A DNA stretch of 39,906 nt from a virus (taxonomy: Duplodnaviria; Heunggongvirae; Uroviricota; Caudoviricetes), in IMG/VR virus record IMGVR_UViG_2737471844_000008, positions 1 to 39,906 of that record. One strand, given 5' to 3'. This document shows, piece by piece, positions 1-35,902 of the stretch. The stretch's first letter is position 1; each line of letters starts with the position of its first letter. The position numbers and the translations under genes were made by a program. Below the pieces are notes generated by a model. The model was not told where the DNA came from, made no database searches, and saw only the letters and a list, made by a program, of their open reading frames with translations.

Positions 1-1173
1 TCAGGCCTTATGGTGGAAATAATCACTCAGGCGGGAAAACATGCCGCCTTCCCCGACAGATTCCAGGGTAACCAGCGGCCAGTGCGCCACCTGTTTATCA
101 CGGTCGTAAAGTTCAATTTCCCCTACCCGCTGATGGGCGCTAATTGGCGCGGTGAGCTCTTTACCATCAAGGGTATATTTGGCTTTGATATGTGGAATTT
201 CGGCTTTCGGTAGCACCATCCAGAACTCTTGTTCCGTTCCCAGGTCGATATTTTCTTTATCGCCATACCAGATGCGTTCCGTTCCGACCTTTTTCCCACG
301 GAGCAAAATTTGCACCGTAGTAAAGTTTTGTTGCCCCCAACGCAGTAATTTTCTTGCCTCTTCCTCACGACCTTTTGCACTGTCAGCCCCCATTACCACT
401 GCAATGAGACGACGCTGCCCATCTACAGCCGAAGCAATGAGATTAAACCCGGCACCAGAAGTATGACCCGTTTTCAGGCCGTCAACATTCATGGTTTTAT
501 CCCACAACAACCCGTTACGGTTTTGCTGGGTGATACCGTTCCAGGTGAGACTTTTCTCACTGTACATATGATAAAACTCGGGCTCGCCGTGGATGATAGC
601 GCGAGAAAGCACAGCTAAATCATAAGCCGAGCTATGCTGGCCAGGTGCATCCAGACCATGCACTGTTTCAAAATGCGTATCCTTGAGATGCAGCTTCTCG
701 GCATAGTTGTTCATCATTTCAACAAACTGCCGTTGCCCACCGGCAATATAGTCAGCCAGAGCAACACAAGCGTCATTTCCGGAATCCACAATTAAACCAC
801 GGCTTAAATCACGTACCGATACGCGATCGCCCTCTTTCAAAAACATCAGTGAAGAACCGACAAACACCGGATTATCTTTCGCCCACGCATCGCGCCCCAC
901 GGTGACAATATCATCTGGCGTAATGCGATGGCTATCGATAGCGCGATCCACGACATAACCCGTCATCAGCTTTGTCAGGCTGGCGGGATTGCGCTGTTGA
1001 TGCTCATTACCCGCGGTGAGGATCTGACCGGTGGTGTAATCCATCAGTACCCAGGACCCGGCATGAATCTGTGGAGGCTGAGGTGAAAAAGGAATGTTTT
1101 CCGCCGCAAAACCAGACGATAAGTTAAAAACGAACAAAGAAGCAGCAATAATAAGACGGCGTTTCAACAGCAA
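1..1173 (-). CDS. dacD: D-alanyl-D-alanine carboxypeptidase DacD (PBP6b), host gene
   Basis: 390-aa ORF matches remembered E. coli DacD along its whole length (N-terminal signal peptide MLLKRRLIIAASLFVF, SLTK active-site serine motif, SGN and KTG motifs). Stop codon sits at window positions 1..3. Confidence 0.95.
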   Translation of the reverse strand: MLLKRRLIIAASLFVFNLSSGFAAENIPFSPQPPQIHAGSWVLMDYTTGQILTAGNEHQQRNPASLTKLMTGYVVDRAIDSHRITPDDIVTVGRDAWAKDNPVFVGSSLMFLKEGDRVSVRDLSRGLIVDSGNDACVALADYIAGGQRQFVEMMNNYAEKLHLKDTHFETVHGLDAPGQHSSAYDLAVLSRAIIHGEPEFYHMYSEKSLTWNGITQQNRNGLLWDKTMNVDGLKTGHTSGAGFNLIASAVDGQRRLIAVVMGADSAKGREEEARKLLRWGQQNFTTVQILLRGKKVGTERIWYGDKENIDLGTEQEFWMVLPKAEIPHIKAKYTLDGKELTAPISAHQRVGEIELYDRDKQVAHWPLVTLESVGEGGMFSRLSDYFHHKA

Positions 1174-1961: not shown

Positions 1962-2324
1962 ATGTTAAAGCTATTTGCAAAGTACACCTCGATTGGTGTG
2001 CTGAACACACTTATACATTGGGTGGTTTTTGGTGTATGTATCTATGCCGCGCACACCAATCAGGCTCTTGCAAACTTCGCAGGTTTCGTTGTGGCTGTGA
2101 GCTTTAGCTTCTTCGCGAATGCAAAATTCACATTCAAAGCTTCGACTACAACGATGCGCTACATGTTATATGTAGGATTCATGGGAACACTGAGTGCTAC
2201 TGTTGGATGGGCTGCCGATAAATGTGCACTTCCTCCAATTGTCACTCTTGTCACCTTCTCCGCCATCAGCCTAGTGTGCGGTTTCGTCTATTCAAAGTTC
2301 ATTGTCTTTAGGGATGCGAAATGA
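1962..2324 (+). CDS. gtrA: GtrA, bactoprenol-linked glucose flippase (O-antigen conversion)
   Basis: 120-aa hydrophobic four-helix protein. ATG start; stop overlaps the gtrB start (ATGA), as in phage gtr operons. Confidence 0.9.
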
Positions 2325-3241
2325 AGATATCTCTGGTCGTTCCTGTCTTCAATGAAGAGGAAGCGATACCAATTTTTTATAAAACGGTACGTGAATTCGA
2401 AGAGTTGAAGCCATATGAAGTGGAAATTGTTTTTATAAATGATGGTAGCAAAGACGCTACGGAGTCAATCATTAACGCTCTGTCCGTTTCAGATCCCCTA
2501 GTTGTTCCGCTGTCATTTACACGAAACTTTGGTAAAGAACCAGCATTGTTTGCAGGGTTAGACCATGCAACCGGAGATGCTGTAATTCCAATTGATGTTG
2601 ACCTGCAAGACCCGATTGAGGTTATTCCTCATCTTATTGAAAAGTGGCAGGCAGGTGCTGATATAGTGCTTGCTAAACGTTCAGACCGTTCTACTGATAG
2701 CCGGCTTAAACGTAAATCTGCTGAATTGTTTTATAAGCTGCATAACAAAATAAGCACCCCTAAGATCGAGGAAAACGTAGGTGACTTCCGTCTGATGTCG
2801 CGAGAGGTCGTGGAGAACATCAAACTCATGCCGGAACGCAATCTTTTCATGAAGGGTGTGCTTAGTTGGGTTGGCGGTCGTACAGATGTCGTTGAATATG
2901 CCCGTGCAGAACGCGTTGCAGGAAGAACAAAATTCAACGGATGGAAACTATGGAACTTGGCGCTTGAGGGGATAACGAGCTTTTCAACCTTCCCTCTGCG
3001 CATGTGGACTTACATTGGTCTGTTCGTTGCAGGTGCAGCGTTACTTTACGGGGCATGGATGATTTTTGACACTCTCGTTTTTGGGAATGCTGTTAGAGGG
3101 TACCCATCACTTCTCGTCTCAATTCTATTTTTAGGCGGCATCCAACTTATCGGCATTGGCGTTCTTGGAGAGTACATTGGAAGGATTTACGTCGAGGTTA
3201 AACAAAGACCTAAATATATATTGAAAGGAATTAAAAAATGA
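2321..3241 (+). CDS. gtrB: GtrB, bactoprenol glucosyltransferase (GT2 family)
   Basis: 306-aa ORF with GT2 signatures ([16 protein letters not shown]) and two C-terminal transmembrane segments; high similarity to remembered phage GtrB proteins. Confidence 0.92.
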
Positions 3242-4689
3242 TAAACATTAAAATAAAATTATTAATTTTGTCCATCATTACTTCCGTTATTGTGTATGGT
3301 TATTGCTTATTTAACTTTAGTCTTTCTATAGATGGAGAGTTTTTTGATAATACCATTCACACAATATCACTTGGCAGGTGGGGTCATGCCCTGCTTCATC
3401 AGTTTATATTACCAGAGCCATACACGCCTTTCTTTTCAGTATTATTATCTTTAGTTATTATTGCCATTGCCGCATGGATGGCATCTATTTTTATAACAGA
3501 AAATACTCACGAGAGATTGGTTGTTATATTTGGTTTTTTTGCCACGCCGCAACTTGCTTATCAATTGCAGTTTACTAACCAGGCAGACACCACAGCTATT
3601 GGTATTCTGTTGGTTGTTATATCCGCGATAACATCATTTAAAGCGATGGATGGTGACAAATCATTACTTAATGCAACCATATCTATTGTATGTCTTTGCT
3701 GTGCTATATCAATATACCAGTCATTTCTTGTTGTAGCGTTTAGTGTATATGTTGGATTCTTTATCCTGAGAACAAGAAATAAAGAAAACAATAAATATAA
3801 AACATCAATAATTAAATTCTCGTTATATAGCACAGTAATATTCATACTTTCACTTGCATTGTATTTTATGTTTTTCAAAATAATATTAATTTCGTATGGA
3901 GTTGATGATAAGACTGCGGAATATTCAAGATCACAAATGGCGTGGGGTTACAGACAAAATAGTTATATAATTAATTATCTGTATAACTACACAAAAAACT
4001 TTTTGCTTGGAGATACGTTTTTTGGGTTTAGGACGTATATTGTTGGAGTGATTGCTGTAGTGGTGGTTTTTTTTAACTTAGTATTCAAACGAAACCTAAA
4101 TAATGCAACGTCATGTTTAATGTCACTTGCTTTGGTGTTATCTCCTTTAGTTCTTGTTTTTTATTTCGGCAATAACCAGATGCCACGCACTTACATTTCA
4201 ATGAGCTTTGTAGTGGCATTTTCAGTTCTGATTATATTCAGAGGCTTGAGTTTAAAGAAAGAGTTTATTATTATCCCGGTCTTCATGTGCCTTTACTCTA
4301 CTTATGCAGCATCGGCATTATTTTATTCTGATGATATTGCAAGATCTAGAGATGAGTTTATATCACGAAAGATAGTTTCTGATGCGCAGTCATTAATTAA
4401 GCATGGTGAGTCTAGTATTATAACACTTTACTTTCATGGACATATAAATAATGAAAACAGATGGAAGTTACGAAACAGTGACACATTTGGAGTGTCTTTC
4501 TTTTCTTGGGATAATGGTGACCCTAGAAGAATATGTGCATATATTTCATATTACTCACTAGCAAAAGTTAGGTGTGAAAAGATATCATCTGGATATGACG
4601 CCAACATAGCAATGAAATTGCCGCCATACCCTTACATAGGATATATAAAAAACGAAAACGGAAAACTAATAATCAATCTTGGTGGGTAA
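3238..4689 (+). CDS. GtrC-like serotype-specific O-antigen glucosyltransferase (polytopic membrane protein)
   Basis: 483-aa highly hydrophobic ORF overlapping the gtrB stop. Markedly AT-rich compared with its neighbours. Third-gene position of a gtr cluster. Confidence 0.75.
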
Positions 4690-4691
4690 AA

Positions 4692-6725
4692 TTACATAGT
4701 TGTACCATCAGCGTATTTCCAAGCTTGAGCCAGTTGATCAAAAAAAACTGGCTTTTTAGTGTCTATGTTATAGATACTGTGACCGTACCCAAGAAGGTTC
4801 TTATTTATAGCGTTTATCTGTGAGGACGTTGCAGCAGTTGGAATGCCAGACCATGCAACAGTAATTAATATCCAGTTGCTTCCAGTCCAGCGGATGTATG
4901 TTCCTGTATCTGTCTGATAAAAAATATGACCAACAGGAACACCAACTGGCCTGGCAGAAGAAAGCCCAACAACCTGGAAGCCTCTGTCGTCAATCCAAAT
5001 TCCAGCCCCTGCGTTGGTGATGAACCTTCCAAATGCCACGTCATAGTAACTGAAACCAGCAATCGCAGACGTAGTGAAGCCAGATTTCCAGGCGGCAGAG
5101 TTATCAATTGATCTAACTCGAATTTCGCGTCTTGTTGCTTCCGTTGCACTCGATGGTGACGCGTTAGATACAGTGTGAATGGAAACGATATCAACCAGCG
5201 TGCTTACAGGTTCTTCACCACGATAGATGTACTGGAAGCCATCATAGTGGGCACTCTGAGAGTCAATGAATGTCGCCCGCACACGATCTGGTCGACCATA
5301 GTAAACAGATAGCGCATTGGCTGATGCGTATGCTTCATTATAATAGCGCGAACTCTTATCCTGAATTCTCAGAACGTTTTTGTAATCCACGCCAACAGCA
5401 ATGCCAGCGGTAGTGGTGGTGAACCTGAACTCGTTATCCGAAAGAATCAGATCTCCCATTTGCCACGTTGGACTATTAATGTCGTCCTCCGCTCCTTGTG
5501 CACCAATCAAAATTCCCGTTGCGAATGTGCGGCAGCGGTTATCACTGACTTTGAATACATCTGATTTCTGGTCGTGTCTGTGCGTGAATAGAGCAAAACC
5601 ATAACCGCCAACTAGGTCATTGTTGTGCAGGTTAACGCGGTGTGTGCCAATGAATTTAAACGCGCGTTCAAACGTTGTTTCTGGTGTTTCAGTATTGTAA
5701 TTGCGCATCACAACACTGTTGTTTTGTACGAATGCGGCGCGGCTGGTTCCTGTTCCATCGGCAAAACTTGATGCGTAGACCGCATGGCGATCAAGCGGTG
5801 CGCCGGCTACACCAAAAATACAGTTGTCGACAGAGATAATCTCACAATCGATAGGGACAGTACCATAGCCATAAACACCTGCGCTCCAGTCCTGTGAAGC
5901 GAGTTGCTGGAATACGTTGGAGTAACGAACGCCATAGCACAAGTGAATCTGTGCAGTCACAGTGTTAACACCAGCACTGATGTTGCGCATTTCTGATCCT
6001 TCATAATGCGCATAAACGTTGTTCACAGTAATGCCAACTACAGCACGCCCAACACCACGAACTTTTCCGCCGTCAATTTTTACTTTAGTGGTGACGCTTT
6101 CGACGCCTGTTCCGTCAAACGTCAGGATCTGGTAGTAGGTGTTTACGTCTGTAGGCGTGAAGTTAACCCAACCGTCAGCCGTAGATTTGATTGTAATGTC
6201 TCTACCATTTAACGATCTGCGAATTGGTGTGTTTATATTCTGTACGTTATCAATGAGAACATCAGCACTGTTCTCAAGAGCGGTATCAATAGCCTGTTCA
6301 AGGCTTCCAGCCTCTGATGTTTTTACAAGACCGCGAACGCCTCCAATGTATGAAAAACCAATAGAAGATGAAAGCCTTCCCTCCAGCTGATCAGGATCAT
6401 ACTTCAGCACATTAGGAAAATAGAACTGCTTCGCCCCATACGCATCGTACACAGCCATAGAATGACCTTGCACAGTTACGAACTTGGCAATCTGTCCGTT
6501 ATATACCGGGTAACCAGCAGCGTTAATGATGATTGGTTGCGAAACAGGAACGTGAGCGCCATCTTCGTTCTCCACATAAACCTGAATCTGGTTTTCAGGA
6601 TTTACAGGGTCAGTGTCAATTTTACCGATATAAATTTTGCCATTGGCTACAGCTTTAAAAGAACGAGCCATAGTGAAAAGTTGCGAAGGCATGCTTACCA
6701 CAACATTTGCGGTGATATCTGACAT
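4692..6725 (-). CDS. Tailspike protein: P22 gp9-type head-binding domain fused to a divergent receptor-binding domain
   Basis: From [13 protein letters not shown] the first ~110 aa closely match the P22/HK620 tailspike head-binding domain; the rest is divergent. The ORF-track start at 6773 is a 16-aa upstream extension; an ATG at 6723..6725 is preceded by a GGAG Shine-Dalgarno. Confidence 0.9.
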
Positions 6726-6846
6726 TTCATTGCTCCAGACGAATGATATGATGCAACCATGATGTGATTGCATACCGAAATGGTACTATTGAGTATTTAT
6801 CCAGTAGGTTACGATGCCATTCCACCCAACTGGTGAGGCATCAAGG

Positions 6847-7107
6847 ATGTACAGCAAATACGACGAGGCGCAGTTTCACTTGAGACTTCCGCATGAACTC
6901 CACGCGAAAATTAAACAGCGCGCGAAGATGAATAACAGGTCGCTGAACTCAGAGATAATTGCAGCGATTGAAGAATCATTGGCTAAACAAAGCTCTGCAT
7001 CAGTTTACATTGACGATGCAGAGCGTATGGCAGAACAACAATCTGATATTGTTAAGAAAATTGTCTTTGATACGCTCAAGGAGCTATATAAAAAAGACAG
7101 CAGCTAA
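6847..7107 (+). CDS. mnt: Mnt-like ribbon-helix-helix repressor (immI-type), orphan
   Basis: C-terminal segment NDAERMAEQQSDIVKKIVFDTLKELYKK closely matches P22 Mnt; N-terminal RHH motif (FHLRLPHELHAKIKQRA...NGRSLNSEI). Start taken at the internal ATG (MYSKYDE). Confidence 0.8.
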   Translation: MYSKYDEAQFHLRLPHELHAKIKQRAKMNNRSLNSEIIAAIEESLAKQSSASVYIDDAERMAEQQSDIVKKIVFDTLKELYKKDSS

Positions 7108-24296: not shown

Positions 24297-24330
24297 GAAA
24301 AAGCCCCGAGCTATTAACTCAGGGCTTTAT
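24297..24330 (-). terminator. Intrinsic terminator about 25-60 nt downstream of the pR' start (tR'-like)
   Basis: Minus-strand RNA AGCCCUGAG-UUAAUAG-CUCGGGGCU (9-bp stem with one G-U pair) followed by UUUUUCAUUUCU. Confidence 0.6.
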
Positions 24331-26679: not shown

Positions 26680-27043
26680 TATTGGCGTCCTGCATCATGA
26701 GAAATACAATCATGGCGGCGCGGAGTGGAGATTCACCGCAGAAGCAGTAGCCAGGAATATTTTCCCATTCCCAACAACCTTCCTCTAAATCACCTCCTGA
26801 CCATGCGCACCATTCTTTTTCCGCTGTCATCCACATAGTGCTGATTTTGCTTTCAGTGATAATTGGCCATGCGTCTTCAGGATTATTGCAGTAGTCGTAC
26901 CATCGATAATTACCATTTGATTCATTGCCGACAGACCGTCCATCTGCGTTGTGCGGATAACCTAATGGTATTGCCCCCACTATCGCTTTAAATACTCGCT
27001 TGTTAATTTCAAAATCACTTAACTGTGAATAATCCATTATCAT
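26672..27043 (-). CDS. NinX-like protein (nin-region protein of unknown function)
   Basis: 123-aa ORF starting [23 protein letters not shown]; its ATG overlaps the NinE stop (ATGA). Family assignment is from memory only. Confidence 0.55.
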
Positions 27044-27216
27044 TTCCTCGCACGATGTCTTAGCCACCGGATATCCCACAGGTGAGCCGTGTAGTTGAAG
27101 GTTTTTACGTCAGATTCTTTTGGGATTGGCTTGCGTTTGTTTCTGGAGCGTTTCGTTGGAAGGTATTTGCAGTTTTCGCAGATTATGTCGGTGATACTTC
27201 GTCGCTGTCTCGCCAC
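27040..27216 (-). CDS. ninE: NinE (58 aa; GTG start)
   Basis: Manual translation gives (M)[57 protein letters not shown], matching lambda NinE from memory. No in-frame ATG; GTG at 27214..27216 is preceded by AAAGGAGGA. Confidence 0.65.
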
Positions 27217-27352
27217 ACGTCCTCCTTTTCCTGCGGTAGTGGTAACACCCCTGTTGGTGTTCTTTCACACCGGAGACACCATCGATTCCAGTAAGGCTGT
27301 CCTGGTCGAAAGCGATCGTCTTCCTTTCGCTCTCCACATCGATAACAGTGCT

Positions 27353-27943
27353 TCATGCGATCACCATTTTGCATGGTTTAATCGCCATGCCGGGAGCCAG
27401 TTCAAAATCGGAGTCGCACTGATTTCCCCACATATCCCACCCGGTCACTTTGTCGCGGCTAAATAACTCACAGCGCGGCACGTCGCCAAGCAACTTAGCT
27501 AACATGTCTCTTACGATCGGTGGTTTTGCACTGTGCTCCATTCTCGGTGCGGTAAAGTGCTGGCATATTGAAGCGTCCATTCTCTCAGGCAACCGCCCTC
27601 GAACGGCAAACAAGCAATCCTCGCTATTTGCCCGGGTCATATGCCCCATTCCGATCGCACTGTTGCCTTTGTGCTTATTGGTTTTGTGCCAAGTAAAGCC
27701 TTTCATAGTCATCAACCTGAATCCCCACGCCTCAATTACCTTTAGCGCTTCGGCTGGCTGTGTCGGCACCCACCACATCGCTAACAAGCAAGATTCTGGA
27801 TCCGCTAAATCCCATACTGGCAGTCGGCAAATGTCCTGAACATTCATAACATCGTATTTATGTCCAGCACCGCGATTGCCATCGTTGGCTTTGTCGCGAT
27901 ATTGCCAAGGTGGATCTGCGTAAATAAGTCGGTATTTGTTCAT
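27353..27943 (-). CDS. DNA N6-adenine methyltransferase, MT-A70 family (orphan, no adjacent nuclease)
   Basis: 196-aa ORF with the catalytic DPPW motif ([10 protein letters not shown]) near the N-terminus; sits between ninB and ninE. Confidence 0.85.
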
Positions 27944-28380
27944 GCAGCTTTATCTCCCCATCTCGCTTTCCACTCCAGAGCCAGTCGCGATTCGTCTGAC
28001 CATTTAACGCCACGTTCTGTACCGAATGCCTGTATAAGCTCTAATAACTCCGCAAATTCGCTTACACGCATCCTGCTGGTTGACTGGCCTATTACCACAA
28101 AGCCATTCCCGGCAAGGTTAGGAACAACGTCCTGCTGCTTTAATGCTGCGGTAAACACACACTTCCAGCTTTCTGCATCCAGCCAGCGACCATGCCATTC
28201 AACCTGACGAGAGACGTCACCAAGGCAAGCCCAAAGCTTTCGGTTTTGGTCTAAGCTGCGGTTGCGTTCCTGAATGGTTACTACGATTGGTTTGGTTGGG
28301 TCTGGAAGGATTTGCTGTACTGCGTGAATAGCGTTTTGCTGATGTGCTGGAGATCGAATTTCAAAGGTTAGTTTTTTCAT
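27940..28380 (-). CDS. ninB: NinB (Orf-family recombination mediator)
   Basis: 146-aa ORF matching lambda NinB from memory. Confidence 0.9.
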   Translation of the reverse strand: MKKLTFEIRSPAHQQNAIHAVQQILPDPTKPIVVTIQERNRSLDQNRKLWACLGDVSRQVEWHGRWLDAESWKCVFTAALKQQDVVPNLAGNGFVVIGQSTSRMRVSEFAELLELIQAFGTERGVKWSDESRLALEWKARWGDKAA

Positions 28381-28390
28381 GACTTCCCTC

Positions 28391-28430
28391 TCCCCAAAAT
28401 AAAAAGGCCTGCGATTACCAGCAGGCCTGT
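28391..28430 (-). terminator. tR2-like intrinsic terminator between the replication and nin modules
   Basis: Minus-strand RNA AGGCCUGC-UGGUAAUC-GCAGGCCU (8-bp perfect stem) followed by UUUUUAUUUUGG; same position as lambda tR2. Confidence 0.65.
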
Positions 28431-28457: not shown

Positions 28458-30338
28458 TTAATACTCCGTCACGTTTTCCTGTCGCCACGCCTCGTCATAT
28501 TCCGATTTCGGCATATTGGCGATGTAGCTATATGGCGATCCTGATTCAAGTTGCAGGAACTGGTGCGATTGCTCGTCAAGGAACAACGGGACACCACCTT
28601 CCCAACCTTCGCCGTTACGTTGTTTTTCAAGCATCAAAACAGATGCCGGAGATGCCAGTAGCTGTTCGTCCTTCTCTGACATCTTTTCACCACTCTGAAC
28701 TCTCTGTAACGCTCTCTCGCGAGCCTTGTTACGCCAGATGATGAAAAGGTTGTCTGTCAGGTCTGTTATCGCTCCAGAGCCTTTTACGTCCATTTTCCCG
28801 GTTGGTTTTTCTTCGCTGTCACCTTTTCGCGAGTGAGTAACGAGAATGACGTGGGAGTTTGTTTTGTTTTTGAAATCGCAAATCGAGTCAACAAACGCCT
28901 TCTGCCCGTTATAGTCATCGTCGCCTATGCCACATTTCATCAGGCTGTCGATGATGAATAACTGGATGCCGTATCGGCGGCGAGCGTAGTCGAATATTTC
29001 GATCAGCCTGTCGGCTTTCGCCGTTCCGGTCAGGCCAAACACCCAAAGTCTTTCGTCATAAAATTTAAATGCAGAGTCAATTTCCAGCACTGGCGGCATC
29101 TTGCAGCACGTCGCCTGACGGGTAAGTCGCTTAAGGAGAATGCCTGGCTTCAGCTCAAGTGACGCGATGCACGTCTTCACACCCTGACGCATTGCCTCAA
29201 GTGCCATATGCCCGACAACCTCCGTTTTCCCGTGACCGTTCACACCATTGACCAGCGTCAACTCGGCCTCACGGAACTGGAATTTATCTGCCAGAGATTC
29301 CCACGGTGGATTAAACAGATACTGCTGCTTGCCGTAGAAAGCGTTGATAGTGTCCTGGTAAAACTCTCGCGCGCTGTAGAGTTCTTCAGGATCGAAGTAA
29401 GATGCCGTGCCGATGTACTGCCAGATTTCATCCTCGGTAACACCGTTCATCAGGCATTCGTTGATGTCTTTGTACGGCAGAGTAACAAGACGGCAACGAT
29501 GTTCACCGAGTCGGCTTGCGATTTCCCTTGCGGCTTCACGACCAACATCATCAACATCCATCGAGATGAATATTTCCTCAAACCTGTCGAGGTTGTGATA
29601 CTCAAACTCAATCCACTGTTGCTTAGCGCCTTTCCCGCCACCAAACGGCACGGATAACGCCGAGATGCCGTATTGCGCATAGCTCATACAATCAATTTCG
29701 CCTTCGCAAAGCACAACCGCCCTCACGCCAGCGTCCAGAGCCTGCCATCCGAACAGACAAGGTTCACAATCACCTTCTGCCATAATGACTTTCTTCCCGT
29801 CCGGGCGCTCAGTGCTGATTCGCTTGACCTGCAACAACTCACCATCGCGTTTGTACGGAAGCACCAGTGCATCAAGTTCTCGTTCTCCATTCCACACCTT
29901 GCCGCTGACAACCTCGTAGCGCTTTACGACTTCTGGCGATATGCCACGCGATTGCAGGTACTCAAGATGGGATTCTGTTCTGGTAACGTAGCGGGCTATT
30001 TTCTTGCGATCAGGTCTGGAGAATTTCTTCTCACGTTTGGCATCGAAATGGTGATCGTCATCCTTGATACCGAGAAATGCTTTCGCTTCCTGCATAGCCT
30101 GATGCAGGTTAATTCCACGACATGCCATCCACAAATCAAGCATGTCACCGCCGTCTCCCTCAGCGAAATCAGCCCATTTTTTCTTGCCGCTAAGATTGAC
30201 CTTAAGGCTGTTTCCCTTGTCACCGTTGACGTTACCGGCAACCCACTCATGCCCCTCTTTCTTGCCGTTTGGCAACAGGTGCGGAGCCACCCTGTCAACC
30301 TGCGCCCAAAGCAGGTCGCTAAGTTCACTTGGCGTCAT
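28458..30338 (-). CDS. Bifunctional replicative primase-helicase (TOPRIM primase plus SF4 DnaB/Twinkle-like RecA-fold ATPase)
   Basis: 626-aa ORF. TOPRIM signature (VLCEGEIDCMS, then DVDDVGREAA) followed by Walker A (NGVNGHGKTE) and Walker B (LFIIDSL). Confidence 0.8.
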   Translation of the reverse strand: MTPSELSDLLWAQVDRVAPHLLPNGKKEGHEWVAGNVNGDKGNSLKVNLSGKKKWADFAEGDGGDMLDLWMACRGINLHQAMQEAKAFLGIKDDDHHFDAKREKKFSRPDRKKIARYVTRTESHLEYLQSRGISPEVVKRYEVVSGKVWNGERELDALVLPYKRDGELLQVKRISTERPDGKKVIMAEGDCEPCLFGWQALDAGVRAVVLCEGEIDCMSYAQYGISALSVPFGGGKGAKQQWIEFEYHNLDRFEEIFISMDVDDVGREAAREIASRLGEHRCRLVTLPYKDINECLMNGVTEDEIWQYIGTASYFDPEELYSAREFYQDTINAFYGKQQYLFNPPWESLADKFQFREAELTLVNGVNGHGKTEVVGHMALEAMRQGVKTCIASLELKPGILLKRLTRQATCCKMPPVLEIDSAFKFYDERLWVFGLTGTAKADRLIEIFDYARRRYGIQLFIIDSLMKCGIGDDDYNGQKAFVDSICDFKNKTNSHVILVTHSRKGDSEEKPTGKMDVKGSGAITDLTDNLFIIWRNKARERALQRVQSGEKMSEKDEQLLASPASVLMLEKQRNGEGWEGGVPLFLDEQSHQFLQLESGSPYSYIANMPKSEYDEAWRQENVTEY

Positions 30339-30445: not shown

Positions 30446-31306
30446 TCACCTGTCGAAAAACACGTAGCCAGTTTTCGATACGGTGATTGCGGATGATGGT
30501 TTGGATTGTGGTTGAATAGTTTCTGGCTTCTCGTCGTTCCAGCGTTGACCGTTCAGGTAGCTCGATGGTAACAACCTGTCGAATCCGAACTGCTTACCAT
30601 TCCTGCATGCGATGTCTTCTGCCAGCATCGTGGCAAACTCGCTTGCCGTACCCCTGGTAGTTTTACGCCATTCCCTGAACTGTGTTCTGAATGCCGAAGC
30701 TGCGTTTTTCTTCCCGGCTTTCCGCATGCCTGCACACCAGAATATTTCCTCGAATGCCTTGTCGGTTTCTTCGTGACGGTCATGTGATTTTTCACACTCC
30801 GTCCGAACACTTTCGGACATAGTGTTTTTATTATTTCTTTTTTCTTTTGTAATAGTTTCTTTTGTGTGTCCCTGTTTTGGTGACAGCGCTGTCACCGTTT
30901 TGGTGACACTTTTTGTCACCAATGCAGTGACATTATCACCAGAGTAGTGACACCCTTCTATTTGCCATTCCTCGATGTTCTTGTTAGGCCCGATTTGCTG
31001 GCCTTCGCGAAGGATAACCTTCATCGCGATAAGCTCATTCTTGGCCTTGTTTACCTTCTGTCTTGGCAGCCTGGTAATTTGAGCTAACTGACTATCAGAG
31101 ATGCGATCCATCTTTTTACCGTAGCCGTATGTTTTACGGCATATGGCGTGGGCAACCTTGCTCTGATTTTTCGTTAAATCTGCGCCGATAAGCTCTTCAT
31201 ACAGGGCATTTGCAAGACGGGTATAACCATCTTCAACTTCTGACACACGACGCTCCACAGGCCGTTGTGAAGGCCTTAAATGTGTTACGGTTGCAAGATT
31301 ACTCAT
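30446..31306 (-). CDS. Replication initiator (lambda O-like replisome organiser) containing the origin
   Basis: N-terminal phage replication-initiator DNA-binding domain ([51 protein letters not shown]); iterons and AT-rich tract lie mid-gene as in lambda O. Confidence 0.8.
30826..30955 (-). repeat. Origin of replication: four iterons plus adjacent AT-rich tract inside the O-like gene
   Basis: (G/A)GTGACA...TGTCACC palindromic units at 30879..30896, 30902..30920, 30926..30940 and 30946..30955 (period about 20-24 bp), flanked by a T-rich tract at 30826..30875. Confidence 0.7.
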
Positions 31307-31879: not shown

Positions 31880-32065
31880 TTATGCCGCTTTGCGGTAAGC
31901 GCTTTCTTGATACTTCAGGGCGCCAGCTGTAACGACTTCCAGTCGATAGGCGTCTTTCTCTGGGATGACTTCCTTCCACTGAGAGACTGCTGCGTCGCTA
32001 ATGCCTAACGCTTTAGCTACAGCACGCTGGGTTCCGAAGTGGTCGATAACATCTTTCTTGTACAT
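31880..32065 (-). CDS. cro: Cro repressor, P22-type
   Basis: 61-aa ORF near-identical, from memory, to P22 Cro (MYKKDVIDHFGTQRAVAKALGISDAAVSQWKEVIPEKDAYRLE...). Confidence 0.93.
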   Translation of the reverse strand: MYKKDVIDHFGTQRAVAKALGISDAAVSQWKEVIPEKDAYRLEVVTAGALKYQESAYRKAA

Positions 32066-32079
32066 AGACTCGCTCCGAA

Positions 32080-32145
32080 ATTAAAGAACACTTAAATTAT
32101 CCACTAAAGGAATCTTAAGTCAAGTTTATTTAAGATGTCTTAACT
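32080..32145. promoter_or_regulatory. Right operator OR1-OR2-OR3 with divergent PR (to cro) and PRM (to c2)
   Basis: Three 18-bp P22-type operators: ATTAAAGAACACTTAAAT (32080..32097), ACTAAAGGAATCTTAAGT (32103..32120), ATTTAAGATGTCTTAACT (32128..32145). PR on the minus strand: -35 TTGACT (32118..32123), 17-nt spacer, -10 ATAATT (32095..32100). The c2 ATG directly follows OR3. Confidence 0.75.
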
Positions 32146-32796
32146 ATGAAAACTCAATTGATGGGAGAGCGCATTCGCGCTCGGAGAAAAGAACTCAAGA
32201 TCAGGCAGGCCGCACTTGGAAAGATGGTCGGCGTGTCTAATGTTGCCATATCTCAGTGGGAACGCTCTGAGACAGAGCCAAATGGAGAGAATCTTCTCGC
32301 CCTGGCTAATGCGTTGAAGTGTTCCCCTGACTATCTGATGAAAGGAGAGGAAAGTCTTTCAAACATTGCCTATCACAGTAGGCATGATCCAAGAGGGTCA
32401 TACCCTCTGATTAGCTGGGTGAGCGCAGGATGCTGGATGGAAGCTGTAGAACCATATCATAAGCGTGCAATAGATAACTGGTACGATACAACCGTAGACT
32501 GTTCAGAAGATTCGTTTTGGTTGGACGTGAAGGGAGACTCAATGACGGCTCCGGCCGGTCTCAGTATCCCTGAAGGAATGATAATACTCGTCGATCCTGA
32601 AGTAGAGCCGCGTAACGGGAAACTGGTAGTTGCAAAGCTCGAAGGAGAAAACGAGGCAACTTTCAAGAAGTTAGTTATTGATGCAGGCAGGAAGTTTCTA
32701 AAACCACTTAACCCACAATATCCGATGATCGAGATCAACGGAAACTGCAAAATCATCGGCGTAGTTGTCGATGCAAAACTAGCAAACCTTCCATAA
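32146..32796 (+). CDS. c2: C2 repressor (P22 c2; CI-type HTH plus S24 LexA-like autopeptidase)
   Basis: 216-aa ORF near-identical, from memory, to P22 C2 (QLMGERIRARRKELKIRQAALGKMVGVSNVAISQWERSETEPNGENLLAL...). Confidence 0.95.
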   Translation: MKTQLMGERIRARRKELKIRQAALGKMVGVSNVAISQWERSETEPNGENLLALANALKCSPDYLMKGEESLSNIAYHSRHDPRGSYPLISWVSAGCWMEAVEPYHKRAIDNWYDTTVDCSEDSFWLDVKGDSMTAPAGLSIPEGMIILVDPEVEPRNGKLVVAKLEGENEATFKKLVIDAGRKFLKPLNPQYPMIEINGNCKIIGVVVDAKLANLP

Positions 32797-32819
32797 GGGG
32801 GCATTCGCCCCTTTTTTTT
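32797..32819 (+). terminator. Intrinsic terminator downstream of c2
   Basis: GGGGGC-ATTC-GCCCC hairpin immediately after the c2 stop, followed by eight T residues. Confidence 0.7.
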
Positions 32820-32842
32820 ATTTCCTTTAAAAATCAAAGCAA

Positions 32843-32916
32843 AACTTAAGTTACGAAAGAAAATTTAAGTTTTCTTCAAAAATATTCTTGACCATTAATT
32901 AAAGAGATCTTAAATT
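32843..32916 (+). promoter_or_regulatory. Left operator region OL with PL promoter
   Basis: PL: -35 TTGACC (32888..32893), 17-nt spacer, -10 TAAATT (32911..32916). P22-type operator ATTAAAGAGATCTTAAAT (32898..32915) overlaps the promoter; two further TTAAG-containing operator-like sites lie at about 32843..32879. Confidence 0.6.
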
Positions 32917-32962
32917 TAAGCCATCAGCAGGACGCTGGAAGCCAAACGGAACAGATTGGCAG

Positions 32963-33003
32963 GCTCTTTAACATTGATGGGATTGTCCCGCCGAAATGCG
33001 GGA
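32963..33003 (+). promoter_or_regulatory. nutL (boxA plus boxB)
   Basis: boxA GCTCTTTAACA (32963..32973), then boxB hairpin UCCCGC-CGAAAU-GCGGGA (32986..33003), about 40-80 nt downstream of the predicted PL start; same boxB as nutR. Confidence 0.65.
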
Positions 33004-33756: not shown

Positions 33757-34614
33757 ATGCCAGGATTTACAAGTAAATTCATACCAAGAAGAGAATTCAA
33801 GCATAATCCAGAAAGACTAAATGTTATTTCTTCCGGTGGTGGTACTCAAAGTAACGCAATAATCTGCTTAGTACATGCTGGCGTTCTTCCAAAGCCTGAC
33901 ATTATCGTTATGTCAGATACAGAACGTGAGGCAAGTAATGTATTTGAATATCAGAAAAAATATATAGCTCCTATTTGTGAAGATATGGGTGTTGATTACC
34001 TGATTGTTCCTAAAAGTAGATTTGCTACCTACGACATTGATGGGCCTGATCCAGACGTTCCTCTACCTGGATATTTCACAGAATACGAGGGAAGGGATTC
34101 AAAAGGAATGTGCGCTGGAAAGCAACCAGCATTTTGTTCTATAAAGTGGAAAACTGAAGTTATTCAGAGATTTTTAAATGAAAGATATGGAGAGAAGTAT
34201 CTTACAACAAGAGGAGTGGATAGTTGGATTGGGATAAGCATTGAAGAGGCTAAACGAAGAGCGAAATACCCAACTGGCAAGTGGCAGAGGCGCTATCCAC
34301 TTATTGAAATGCTAATGACTAAACAGATGGCAATTCAATGTGTAGAGGATTATGGTCTTCCTACACCACCTGCCTCGCTTTGCTGGATGTGCCCTAACAG
34401 AGATGATGATCTGTGGCTTTATATGAAAAATAACGTCCCATCTGATTTTGAAAGAGCATGTCAGCATGAAAAAGAGATACAAATGAAGTGGCCTCATTTG
34501 TGGCTTACTAAATATGGTGTTCCACTATCTGAGGCACCACTAACACCTAGTGGTGGTAAAAATGCACAAATGGATCTTATACAATTCTGCGATTCTGGAC
34601 TGTGCTTCGTTTAA
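33757..34614 (+). CDS. PAPS reductase-like PP-loop ATP pyrophosphatase family protein with C-terminal Cys cluster (accessory gene)
   Basis: 285-aa ORF; N-terminal PP-loop-like motif (VISSGGGTQSNAI) typical of the PAPS reductase/DndC/BrxP/IbrA superfamily; C-terminal cysteines (CWMC...C...CDSGLC); AT-rich coding sequence; two terminator-like hairpins follow. Confidence 0.8.
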   Translation: MPGFTSKFIPRREFKHNPERLNVISSGGGTQSNAIICLVHAGVLPKPDIIVMSDTEREASNVFEYQKKYIAPICEDMGVDYLIVPKSRFATYDIDGPDPDVPLPGYFTEYEGRDSKGMCAGKQPAFCSIKWKTEVIQRFLNERYGEKYLTTRGVDSWIGISIEEAKRRAKYPTGKWQRRYPLIEMLMTKQMAIQCVEDYGLPTPPASLCWMCPNRDDDLWLYMKNNVPSDFERACQHEKEIQMKWPHLWLTKYGVPLSEAPLTPSGGKNAQMDLIQFCDSGLCFV

Positions 34615-34933: not shown

Positions 34934-35902
34934 ATGAGTGAAGTAACAGATTTAGTTGTTATTGAAAAAGCAAATGCAATGACTGTATTTCAGTCTGCCG
35001 ACCAGATTGAAGAAATCCTTCAAAAGGTTGAACGTGAAGTTATGTCCTTTGTGCCTGATATCACAACGGCAAAGGGCAGAAAGGAGATCGCTTCTCTGGC
35101 GTATAAAGTTGCGCAGACGAAAACATATCTCGATGGTCTTGGAAAAGACCTTGTTGCTGAACTGAAGGAAATTCCAAAGCTAATTGATGCCAACCGCAAG
35201 ACAGTGCGTGATCGCCTTGATGAGCTGAAATCCAAGGCACGCCAGCCTCTTACTGATTATGAGGAGGAACAGGCACGGATTAAAGCCGAAGAAGAAGCTA
35301 AGGCAGCAGCTGAAGCTCTCGCAAAGCAAATTGAGTCTGACCATGAAATAGCTATTTTGATGGATCGCGAATTTGACCGCCAAAGAGAAGAGGCAAGACT
35401 CAAAGCGGAGCAGGAAAAGCGAGAGCATGAAGAACGCTTAAAAAGAGAAGCTGAAGAGAAAGCCAGAGCAGAAGCCGAAGCAAAGGCAAAAGCCGAAATT
35501 GAAGCAGCAGCAAGGCGAGAAGCAGAAGCTAAGGCCGCAGCGGAACGTGCAGAGCGTGAACGCATTGAAGCCGAGCAACGAGCACAGCGCGAAGCAAAAG
35601 AGGCAGCAGAACGAGCTGAAAGAGAAAAGCAGGCGGCAATTGAAGCAGAACGCCGAAAAGCACAGGAGGAGGCTGAACGAATCCGGCGCGAGGCTGAAGC
35701 AAAAGAGCAAGCCAGAATAGCAGAAGAAAAAAGAATCAAGGACGAAGAAGAGCGTAGAGCAAAGGATAAAGCTCACCGGAAAGAAGTAAATAACAAAATA
35801 CTTGCTGACCTTATCAAGGTTGGCGCATCAGAAGATGTTGCTAAAAATATCATAACAGCCATCGTAAAAGGCAAAGTATTCGCAACAAAAATAACCTACT
35901 AA
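34934..35902 (+). CDS. Coiled-coil protein with long Ala/Glu/Lys/Arg-rich TolA-like helix (unknown function)
   Basis: ATG at 34934 preceded by GGAGGA; the ORF-track start at 34880 is a TTG that would translate the terminator hairpin. About 120-aa N-terminal domain, about 180 aa of EAKA/AERA-type repeats, short C-terminal domain. Confidence 0.7.
   Translation: MSEVTDLVVIEKANAMTVFQSADQIEEILQKVEREVMSFVPDITTAKGRKEIASLAYKVAQTKTYLDGLGKDLVAELKEIPKLIDANRKTVRDRLDELKSKARQPLTDYEEEQARIKAEEEAKAAAEALAKQIESDHEIAILMDREFDRQREEARLKAEQEKREHEERLKREAEEKARAEAEAKAKAEIEAAARREAEAKAAAERAERERIEAEQRAQREAKEAAERAEREKQAAIEAERRKAQEEAERIRREAEAKEQARIAEEKRIKDEEERRAKDKAHRKEVNNKILADLIKVGASEDVAKNIITAIVKGKVFATKITY

Follow-up and report, generated by a model that had tools for sequence, protein, structure and literature searches.

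The minus strand of IMG/VR record IMGVR_UViG_2737471844_000008, a stretch of 39,906 nucleotides referred to here in its whole length as the window, carries an open reading frame (ORF) that fills positions 27353-27943 exactly, stop codon counted, and encodes a protein of 196 amino acids. The window consists of an almost complete P22-like lambdoid prophage of Escherichia coli, whose nin region contains the gene. A first-pass annotation had placed the protein among the DPPW-motif adenine methyltransferases of the MT-A70 family, an assignment which proved sound, resting on the DPPW at residues 10-13, a full-length match to the family profile and matches to solved structures. The protein consists of a lone MT-A70 catalytic domain followed by a variable tail of 20 residues. 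Residues 4-175 match profile positions 1-172 of 172 in the Pfam MT-A70 model (PF05063; E=4.8e-25; 88.9 bits against a cut-off of 23.9), and this is the only Pfam family matched. PHROG 359 (‘DNA methyltransferase’) is matched at 8e-107 and the PADLOC type II methyltransferase model, MTase_II, at 4.9e-70. These scores are far beyond chance, and it is confirmed that 27353-27943 codes for an MT-A70 methyltransferase.

The family is a large one, with 12,539 cluster representatives at E<=0.001 and 6,871 at E<=1e-10. Some members have N-terminal extensions, whereas the window protein is a bare core. No NCBIfam model covers it; a 99.8%-identical copy is named ‘MT-A70 family methyltransferase’ in RefSeq, and the copy in NZ_CP015228 is WP_001046389.1. 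The window gene is one further, uncharacterised allele in a known and already annotated family.

Conservation was scored over an alignment of 54 relatives reaching down to 39% identity. The catalytic adenine-binding loop, motif IV, is D10-P-P-W13 (27905..27916, minus strand, as are all the motifs given here; codons GAT CCA CCT TGG), of which D10 is invariant and W13 nearly so. It is followed by the segment T84-W85-H86-K87 (27683..27694), in which W85 and K87 are invariant and which aligns to ‘tWvKk’ of the ciliate methyltransferase MTA1, and by S107-E108-D-C-L (27611..27625), in which E108 is invariant and which aligns to MTA1 ‘kEsCL’. The motif I equivalent, H137-S138-A-K140-P141 (27521..27535), binds the methionine part of S-adenosylmethionine (AdoMet) and aligns to MTA1 ‘qSqKPee’; the AdoMet-binding strand E159-L-F161-S-R163 (27455..27469) aligns to MTA1 ‘EiFaR’. 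The catalytic core ends at W172-G173-N174-Q175 (27419..27430); among close relatives the first two of these residues do not vary, and N174 is at least 90% conserved. Across all 54 relatives the invariant residues are D10, W57, W85, K87, G100, E108, K140 and E159, with W13, H137, S138, P141, F161, R163 and G173 at least 90% conserved. In a phmmer alignment with MTA1, the elements DPPW, W-x-K, (K/S)E-x-CL, S-x-KP and E-(L/I)-F-x-R fall in register. The DPPW lies N-terminal to HSAKP, ELFSR and WGNQ, which is the beta, or permuted, motif order. The counterparts in human METTL3, which make up its catalytic loop and its contacts to AdoMet, we take to be D395-W398 for the DPPW loop, KEHCL with E481 for the S107-L segment, S511/K513 for HSAKP, E532/F534/R536 for ELFSR and G548-N549-Q550 for WGNQ. 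Loss of catalytic residues, which the first-pass annotation had named as an outcome that would speak against it, was looked for by careful alignment, and the motifs were found to be conserved across the 54 relatives.

Sequence matches in the Protein Data Bank (PDB) are to MTA1, METTL4 and METTL3, with E-values of 9e-11 to 1e-6. An AlphaFold 2 model built on the 54 sequences is confident and compact (predicted local distance difference test score, pLDDT, 92.4; predicted template modelling score, pTM, 0.88). A model built earlier on a shallow set of only 35 sequences, of 68-92% identity, had a pLDDT of 52 and was discarded. When the retained model was compared with the PDB by Foldseek, the best 50 matches were all METTL3 or MTA1 catalytic subunits, with E about 1e-14 to 1e-12, template modelling (TM) scores of 0.70-0.76 and 22-25% identity. 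The modelled protein has the Rossmann-like MT-A70 fold. Against the Cronobacter orthologue, the ratio of non-synonymous to synonymous substitution (dN/dS) is 0.065 at a dS of 0.85; for more distant orthologues the silent sites are saturated, with dN still at 0.15-0.32. The gene is intact and under strong purifying selection.

Position in the nin operon and the slot after ninB

Immediately upstream of the methyltransferase gene lies ninB (27940..28380, minus strand; Pfam NinB, 1.1e-54), which encodes an Orf-type recombination mediator. Its TGA stop overlaps the ATG of the methyltransferase gene as ATGA (27940-27943), and a Shine-Dalgarno-like run, GGGGAG, is found 10 nucleotides ahead of that ATG. 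Immediately downstream is ninD (27183..27374, minus strand; Pfam NinD, 9.7e-40, from residue 7 of the longest ORF). Translation of ninD probably starts at the ATG 27356-27354, which shares a further ATGA (27353-27356) with the stop codon of the methyltransferase gene, and the NCBI annotation pipeline, PGAP, places ninD likewise in NZ_CP015228. After ninD comes ninE (27040..27216, minus strand). It had been proposed that the gene sits between ninB and ninE; the nin region and the ninB neighbour stand, although the adjacency to ninE does not, as a Pfam NinD gene intervenes. ATGA overlaps and tight spacing are common in the nin operon of the window.

The order on the minus strand is a PR-like promoter, cro, cII, O, a primase/helicase gene, a strong terminator-like hairpin, ninB, the methyltransferase gene, ninD and ninE, followed by ninX, ninF, ninG, a NinI-type phosphatase gene and Q. 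The PR-like promoter (32096..32123, minus strand; TTGACT-16-GATAAT, 10/12 matches) lies just upstream of a cro-like ORF (31880-32065) and probably drives the transcript that includes the methyltransferase gene. Between the replication genes and ninB is a tR2-like intrinsic terminator (28405..28428, minus strand), with an 8-bp stem containing 6 G-C pairs, then TTTTATTTTG; it sits at the position that tR2 has in lambda. No promoter-like site was found on the minus strand from 28428 to 27943. In the lambda paradigm the nin region lies behind tR2 and is reached through N-type antitermination. Judged by gene order, the methyltransferase gene is probably a delayed-early lytic gene that is silent in the lysogen. 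Since it belongs to a repressor-controlled PR operon, past a tR2-like terminator and without a promoter-like site of its own, the altered host methylation in lysogens that the first-pass annotation had envisaged is unlikely.

As far as sequence tells, the methyltransferase is an orphan. No restriction endonuclease gene lies beside it, the flanking genes being recognisable nin genes, so that the adjacent cognate enzyme that marks a type II restriction-modification system is missing. A PADLOC scan of the function-unknown ORFs of the window returned no restriction-enzyme or defence match, and on this point the first-pass annotation is upheld. The same orphan layout is seen in the inspected E. coli, Cronobacter and Pantoea loci of close relatives. 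No second methyltransferase was found in the window by tblastn with phage Dam and phage Dcm queries. Other six-frame matches to the pattern [DNS]PP[YWF] are isolated tetrapeptides attributable to chance, such as the NPPW at 29301-29312 inside the primase/helicase gene.

Comparison with Sf101, the closest sequenced phage, delimits an exchangeable cassette of methyltransferase gene and ninD (27210..27939, minus strand). Nucleotide identity of ~97% to Sf101 ends exactly at the ninB stop (27940) and restarts at 27209, inside ninE. Between these breakpoints Sf101 has a gene for a PF05869 Dam of 195 amino acids, so that the unit exchanged is ‘MT-A70 + ninD’ for ‘PF05869 Dam’. The two methyltransferases are unrelated (BLASTP E=8.4) and belong to different Pfam families. 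The Sf101 Dam coding sequence, gp48 (1159-1746 of the Sf101 stretch compared), has an annotated start 64 nucleotides inside ninB, with the Pfam Dam match beginning only at residue 24; the true start codon probably lies further downstream than that record has it.

The content of this slot was surveyed by sampling evenly from a ranked list of 2187 E. coli genomes matching the ninB/ninE flanks, and counted in the 34 sampled rows where the ninB and ninE flanks were joined. A ‘phage N-6-adenine-methyltransferase’ (PF05869) occupied the slot in 24 of the 34, a NinC-type phosphoadenosine phosphosulfate (PAPS) reductase in 3/34 and an MT-A70 gene in 2/34, with nothing there in the other 5/34. Lambda itself has NinC between ninB and ninD. 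The slot is a cargo position, most often occupied by a GATC-type phage Dam and only rarely by the MT-A70 gene, which is not homologous to it. Where the slot gene of a sampled genome is an MT-A70 or a NinC-type PAPS reductase gene, ninD is listed beside it; where the slot holds a PF05869 Dam or is empty, ninD is not listed. It seems that ninD travels with some types of cargo. At the locus of the Cronobacter orthologue, the MT-A70 gene is followed directly by ninE, with no ninD between.

Relatives and the probable substrate

At 95-100% nucleotide identity, the gene is present in 39 of 5426 complete E. coli genomes, and among the matches listed every copy lies with ninB and ninD. None of the isolated phages in the collection has the gene above 75% nucleotide identity. 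At the protein level relatives occur in 517 phage records and 176 plasmid records. The enzyme of Erwinia phage 59 is 81-82% identical to the window protein and that of epsilon15 77-78%. The Shiga toxin (Stx) phage enzyme of phi191 (KF971864 30383-31009) follows at 62-64% over residues 2-187 (E=5e-91), with HK639 at 45-50%. An Enterococcus faecium homologue, about 42% identical, sits in a conjugation module and is taken to be the M.EfaBMDam of a Tn1549-type element, the transposon assignment being presumed. A neighbour-joining tree places the window protein in one clade with the enzymes of Erwinia phage 59, epsilon15 and phi191, and the other GATC enzymes outside it. Relatives at least 81% identical follow NinB or a NinB-like gene: those of Cronobacter and Pantoea overlap NinB by 4 bp, and that of Erwinia phage 59 stands 9 nucleotides behind a NinB-like DUF1367 gene. 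The epsilon15/Salmonella branch (77-78%) lies beside int, as does the Stx branch (~64%), where the phi191 gene is about 2 kb from int.

Several relatives have been characterised. M.EcoGV, from the O104:H4 outbreak strain, is called a ‘Dam homolog’ with GATC specificity in one report (PMC6602927), and according to another its overproduction in vivo led to methylation of GATC (PMC10810198). By the statements of these papers, the phi191 Stx enzyme falls in the M.EcoGV / M.EcoPA8orf6770P group. Serratia phage BZS1 encodes an MT-A70 protein, p32, which is 75% identical to the HK639 protein; in a dam- host it rendered plasmid DNA resistant to MboI and sensitive to DpnI, with HinfI and Hin1II sites still cleavable (PMC7556043). 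M.EfaBMDam of Tn1549 is a further MT-A70 member whose GATC specificity was experimentally shown (PMC7556043). The VT2 phage Dam, M.EcoVT2Dam, which represents the usual occupant of the slot after ninB, is listed as GATC-specific (PMC6602927).

Very probably, the window gene is expressed from the nin operon and its product is an active orphan adenine methyltransferase of the MT-A70 family. GATC as the target and DNA as the substrate are less assured than this, and are suggested by the characterised homologues and by equivalence with phage Dam in the slot. GATC is the likely target on two independent grounds: the characterised small prokaryotic MT-A70 enzymes found, in and outside the clade, are all GATC-specific, and the slot otherwise holds a non-homologous methyltransferase of GATC type. 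The PF05869 Dam would then be a functional analogue of the window enzyme, by replacement and not by homology. Relatives expressed alone, M.EcoGV and BZS1 p32, are active in vivo, and enzymes of the beta class act as dimers whose subunits divide the labour (PMC7544214). The entire picture of an active, stand-alone, AdoMet-dependent N6-adenine methyltransferase of the beta class, probably a homodimer, that is made from the nin operon and methylates GATC in DNA appears fairly probable from sequence comparison. The view that the target could not be deduced from the protein was too pessimistic, given three characterised GATC-specific relatives and the phage Dam that usually fills the same slot in sister prophages. 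Of the term ‘DNA methyltransferase’, the second word stands; the first is an inference, as the 62-64% identical Stx homologue was reported to prefer 16S rRNA when with its partner, a partner that is absent here.

On this reading, the gene would be transcribed from PR after loss of repressor, N-type antitermination would carry RNA polymerase past the tR2-like terminator, and translation would be coupled to that of ninB upstream and ninD downstream through the ATGA overlaps. The product, most probably a homodimer, would methylate the adenine of GATC in double-stranded DNA, as host Dam does, so keeping fast-replicating phage DNA fully Dam-methylated. The benefit, more speculatively, may be that progeny DNA resists enzymes of the MboI/DpnII type, which cut unmethylated GATC only, and that phage DNA also evades MutH and SeqA at unmethylated or hemimethylated GATC.

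A number of observations weigh against a GATC-specific DNA enzyme. The phi191 protein served as a stand-in for M.EcoGV, its link to which is taken from statements in the papers, and at 62-64% identity specificity could differ. M.EcoPA8orf6770P, an Stx phage enzyme studied by Gong, Chakraborty and Koudelka, showed no GATC-specific DNA activity in vitro when purified alone (PMC10810198). Together with PNB-2, the product of the gene upstream, it forms a 1:1 complex, which in an assay of S-adenosylmethionine consumption preferred 16S rRNA and 30S subunits and used RNA >13-fold better than DNA (PMC10810198). These in vitro results mean that the substrate of the M.EcoGV-like clade is contested, between GATC in DNA and 16S rRNA. 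The window itself contains 97 GATC sites (2.4 per kb), an observed/expected ratio of 0.48 that does not discriminate between the readings and is uninformative as to the target; CTAG and GGCC are equally under-represented. Finally, E. coli has its own Dam, so that another enzyme for GATC would seem superfluous unless lytic growth makes host Dam limiting, as may be the case for lambdoid phages. Within the window, local maxima of GATC, at 5 per 591 bp, coincide with the methyltransferase gene and the cI region (32171-32970); the 5 sites in the 591 bp of the methyltransferase gene (Poisson P about 0.016) are not significant given the number of windows. One of these 5 lies within the GAT-CC codons of the DPPW.

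The alternatives differ in the target that they assign to the enzyme. It could be a DNA adenine methyltransferase of other or relaxed specificity, counteracting restriction broadly in the manner of the non-specific phage enzymes M.EcoGII, Hia5 and that of Serratia OS31. Orphan phage adenine methyltransferases without sequence specificity do exist (PMC7544214, PMC7556043), the 196 residues are nearly all catalytic core with no separate target-recognition domain, and the identity to the Stx enzymes leaves specificity unproven. It is nevertheless rather unlikely, as the characterised small prokaryotic MT-A70 enzymes in the literature searched, spanning 42-64% identity, are all GATC-specific, BZS1 p32 spared HinfI and Hin1II sites, and core residues 1-175 are very strongly conserved with the M.EcoGV-like phi191 protein; nor was membership of Pfam MT-A70 established, in the literature found, for Hia5-type or the other cited non-specific enzymes. 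That the protein acts chiefly on 16S rRNA, as reported for M.EcoPA8orf6770P with PNB-2, and so tunes translation during induction, would fit the membership of both in one family at 62-64% identity, the RNA preference of the Stx holoenzyme and the place of METTL3, an mRNA enzyme, among the nearest solved structures. Yet rRNA targeting is reported to be conferred by PNB-2 (PMC10810198), and tblastn with PNB-2 (phi191_00045) against the window gave a best E=0.74, and thus no homologue; the anti-repressor found upstream in phi191 was looked for in the window as well, and nothing was found. NinB, considered as a cryptic PNB-2 equivalent since both are of ~145 amino acids, upstream and with a 4-bp overlap, has no similarity to it (E=6), and by the slot survey its adjacency is positional. 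The extended C-terminal tail, the last ~27 residues, which is tied to PNB-2 binding, is likewise absent: the window protein is 12 residues shorter than the Stx enzyme, and similarity extends no further than residue 187 of its 196, beyond which the two proteins are unrelated. The Stx study itself notes shorter non-STEC (not from Shiga toxin-producing E. coli) variants without the last ~27 residues that also lack PNB-2, and the base modified in 16S rRNA was not identified in that study (PMC10810198). The Stx gene belongs to a distinct unit beside int, transcribed from a stationary-phase promoter, whereas the window gene lies inside the PR-nin operon, and MTA1, an equally close solved relative, is a DNA enzyme. 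An rRNA methyltransferase is therefore decidedly unlikely here.

A related proposal, that the nin version lacking PNB-2 is no Dam mimic and methylates RNA, such as rRNA, or single-stranded DNA, possibly with the single-stranded DNA-binding NinB, is highly doubtful; were it true, small phage MT-A70 enzymes would be general modifiers of host translation or recombination, with the target set by a coupled neighbour. In another reading, the enzyme would be a heteromer with NinB, or with the zinc-ribbon-like NinD, aimed at single-stranded intermediates or at those of recombination and replication. The MT-A70 catalysts with solved structures are all heteromeric, the Stx homologue binds the product of its upstream gene, and the succession of NinB and MT-A70 is found again, with the 4-bp overlap seen in the window, in E. 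coli, Cronobacter and Pantoea and, with a divergent NinB-like gene, in Erwinia phage 59. Against this, ATGA overlaps are common in this operon, and the slot after NinB elsewhere holds unrelated genes or nothing, so that adjacency to NinB reflects the slot and not a partnership. The epsilon15/Salmonella relatives do without NinB, the Cronobacter orthologue has no ninD beside it, and relatives are active in vivo when expressed alone, which together make such a heteromer very improbable. An inactive remnant carried in the prophage is scarcely credible: prophage genes often decay, but the frame is intact with all catalytic and AdoMet motifs conserved, the dN/dS is low, copies at 95-100% identity occur in 39 complete E. 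coli genomes, and the AlphaFold 2 model is confident and compact.

If the GATC reading holds, an MT-A70 enzyme in place of the usual PF05869 Dam represents an analogous replacement in a defined lambdoid cargo slot, which argues that the need of the phage at that point in the lytic cycle is GATC methylation. The nin-region allele, having no partner, also offers a clean natural test case for what the catalytic subunit does alone.

The surrounding prophage

The nearest sequenced phages to the prophage are Sf101, IME10, CUS-3 and the mEp/HK phages. At one end it borders on a D-Ala-D-Ala carboxypeptidase gene of the host (1-1044, minus strand). A gtrA / gtrB / GtrII-type cassette for O-antigen glucosylation, that is, serotype conversion (1962-4689), is followed by a P22-type tailspike gene (4692-6773) and the gene for an Mnt repressor (6814-7107); like Sf101, this is a serotype-converting phage. 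Further content includes P22-type structural genes, lysis genes, Q, the nin region, O, cII, cro and cI, and the PL arm carries a Rad52-type recombinase gene and an anti-RecBCD gene with an ORF resembling a single-stranded DNA-binding protein gene between them. In the replication module, the partner of a lambda-O-type initiator (30446-31306) is not a lambda P-type loader but a fused Toprim primase / DnaB-like helicase of 626 amino acids (28458-30338, minus strand). The methyltransferase cassette also occurs in NZ_CP015228, there behind another replication module, with a DnaB-type helicase, which indicates that cassette and replication module assort independently.

In the PL arm, just after an N-like gene, an ORF of 285 amino acids (33757-34614, plus strand) has an SGGxxS PP-loop-like motif. 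It matches PHROG 424 (‘phosphoadenosine phosphosulfate reductase’) at 4e-36 and, weakly, PADLOC SspD at 1e-7, with no Pfam match at 1e-3. The PAPS-reductase annotation is also found on lambda NinC, which sits in the ninB-ninD slot filled here by the methyltransferase gene, so that this phage would carry both kinds of cargo, at different positions. A second PL-arm ORF, of 322 amino acids (34934-35902, plus strand), has no Pfam or PADLOC match and matches phrog_1376, of unknown function, at 9e-111; a related prophage in NZ_CP015228 has a hypothetical protein of equal length at the equivalent position. A strong intrinsic-terminator-like hairpin (24300-24328, minus strand) lies at the position expected for lambda tR', after Q, and overlapping hairpins inside the O gene (30878-30908, plus strand) are possibly origin-related repeats.

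Comparison with known methyltransferases and slot genes

Among known systems, the phage Dam proteins of PF05869, of the M.EcoVT2Dam and Sf101 gp48 type, are like the window enzyme orphan, of similar size and found in the same slot after ninB. Lambda NinC, a PAPS-reductase-like protein of 290 amino acids, occupies the same position between ninB and ninD, with ninD following there too, but it belongs to an unrelated family and is no methyltransferase; it shows that the slot is a site of exchangeable cargo.

M.EcoGV and M.EcoPA8orf6770P have the same fold and motifs as the window enzyme and, like it, are orphan and prophage-borne. The Stx enzyme is larger, at 208 amino acids, with a longer C-terminal tail, and its gene is placed next to int and after the PNB-2 gene, in a unit with a stationary-phase promoter, whereas the window gene is found in the nin operon without PNB-2 or the tail. 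BZS1 p32, the HK639 enzyme and M.EfaBMDam resemble the window protein as single-domain MT-A70 proteins of 180-220 amino acids that are orphan and borne on mobile elements. They differ in location, the HK639 and BZS1 genes lying downstream of int and the Enterococcus gene in a conjugation module, and all are more distant in sequence. Farther afield, MTA1, which forms N6-methyladenine in DNA, and METTL3, which forms N6-methyladenosine in mRNA, have the catalytic domain, DPPW and AdoMet motifs in common with the window protein. These are obligate heteromers, with MTA9/p1/p2 and METTL14, respectively, and carry extra domains, in contrast to the phage protein, which is a bare core and probably a homodimer.

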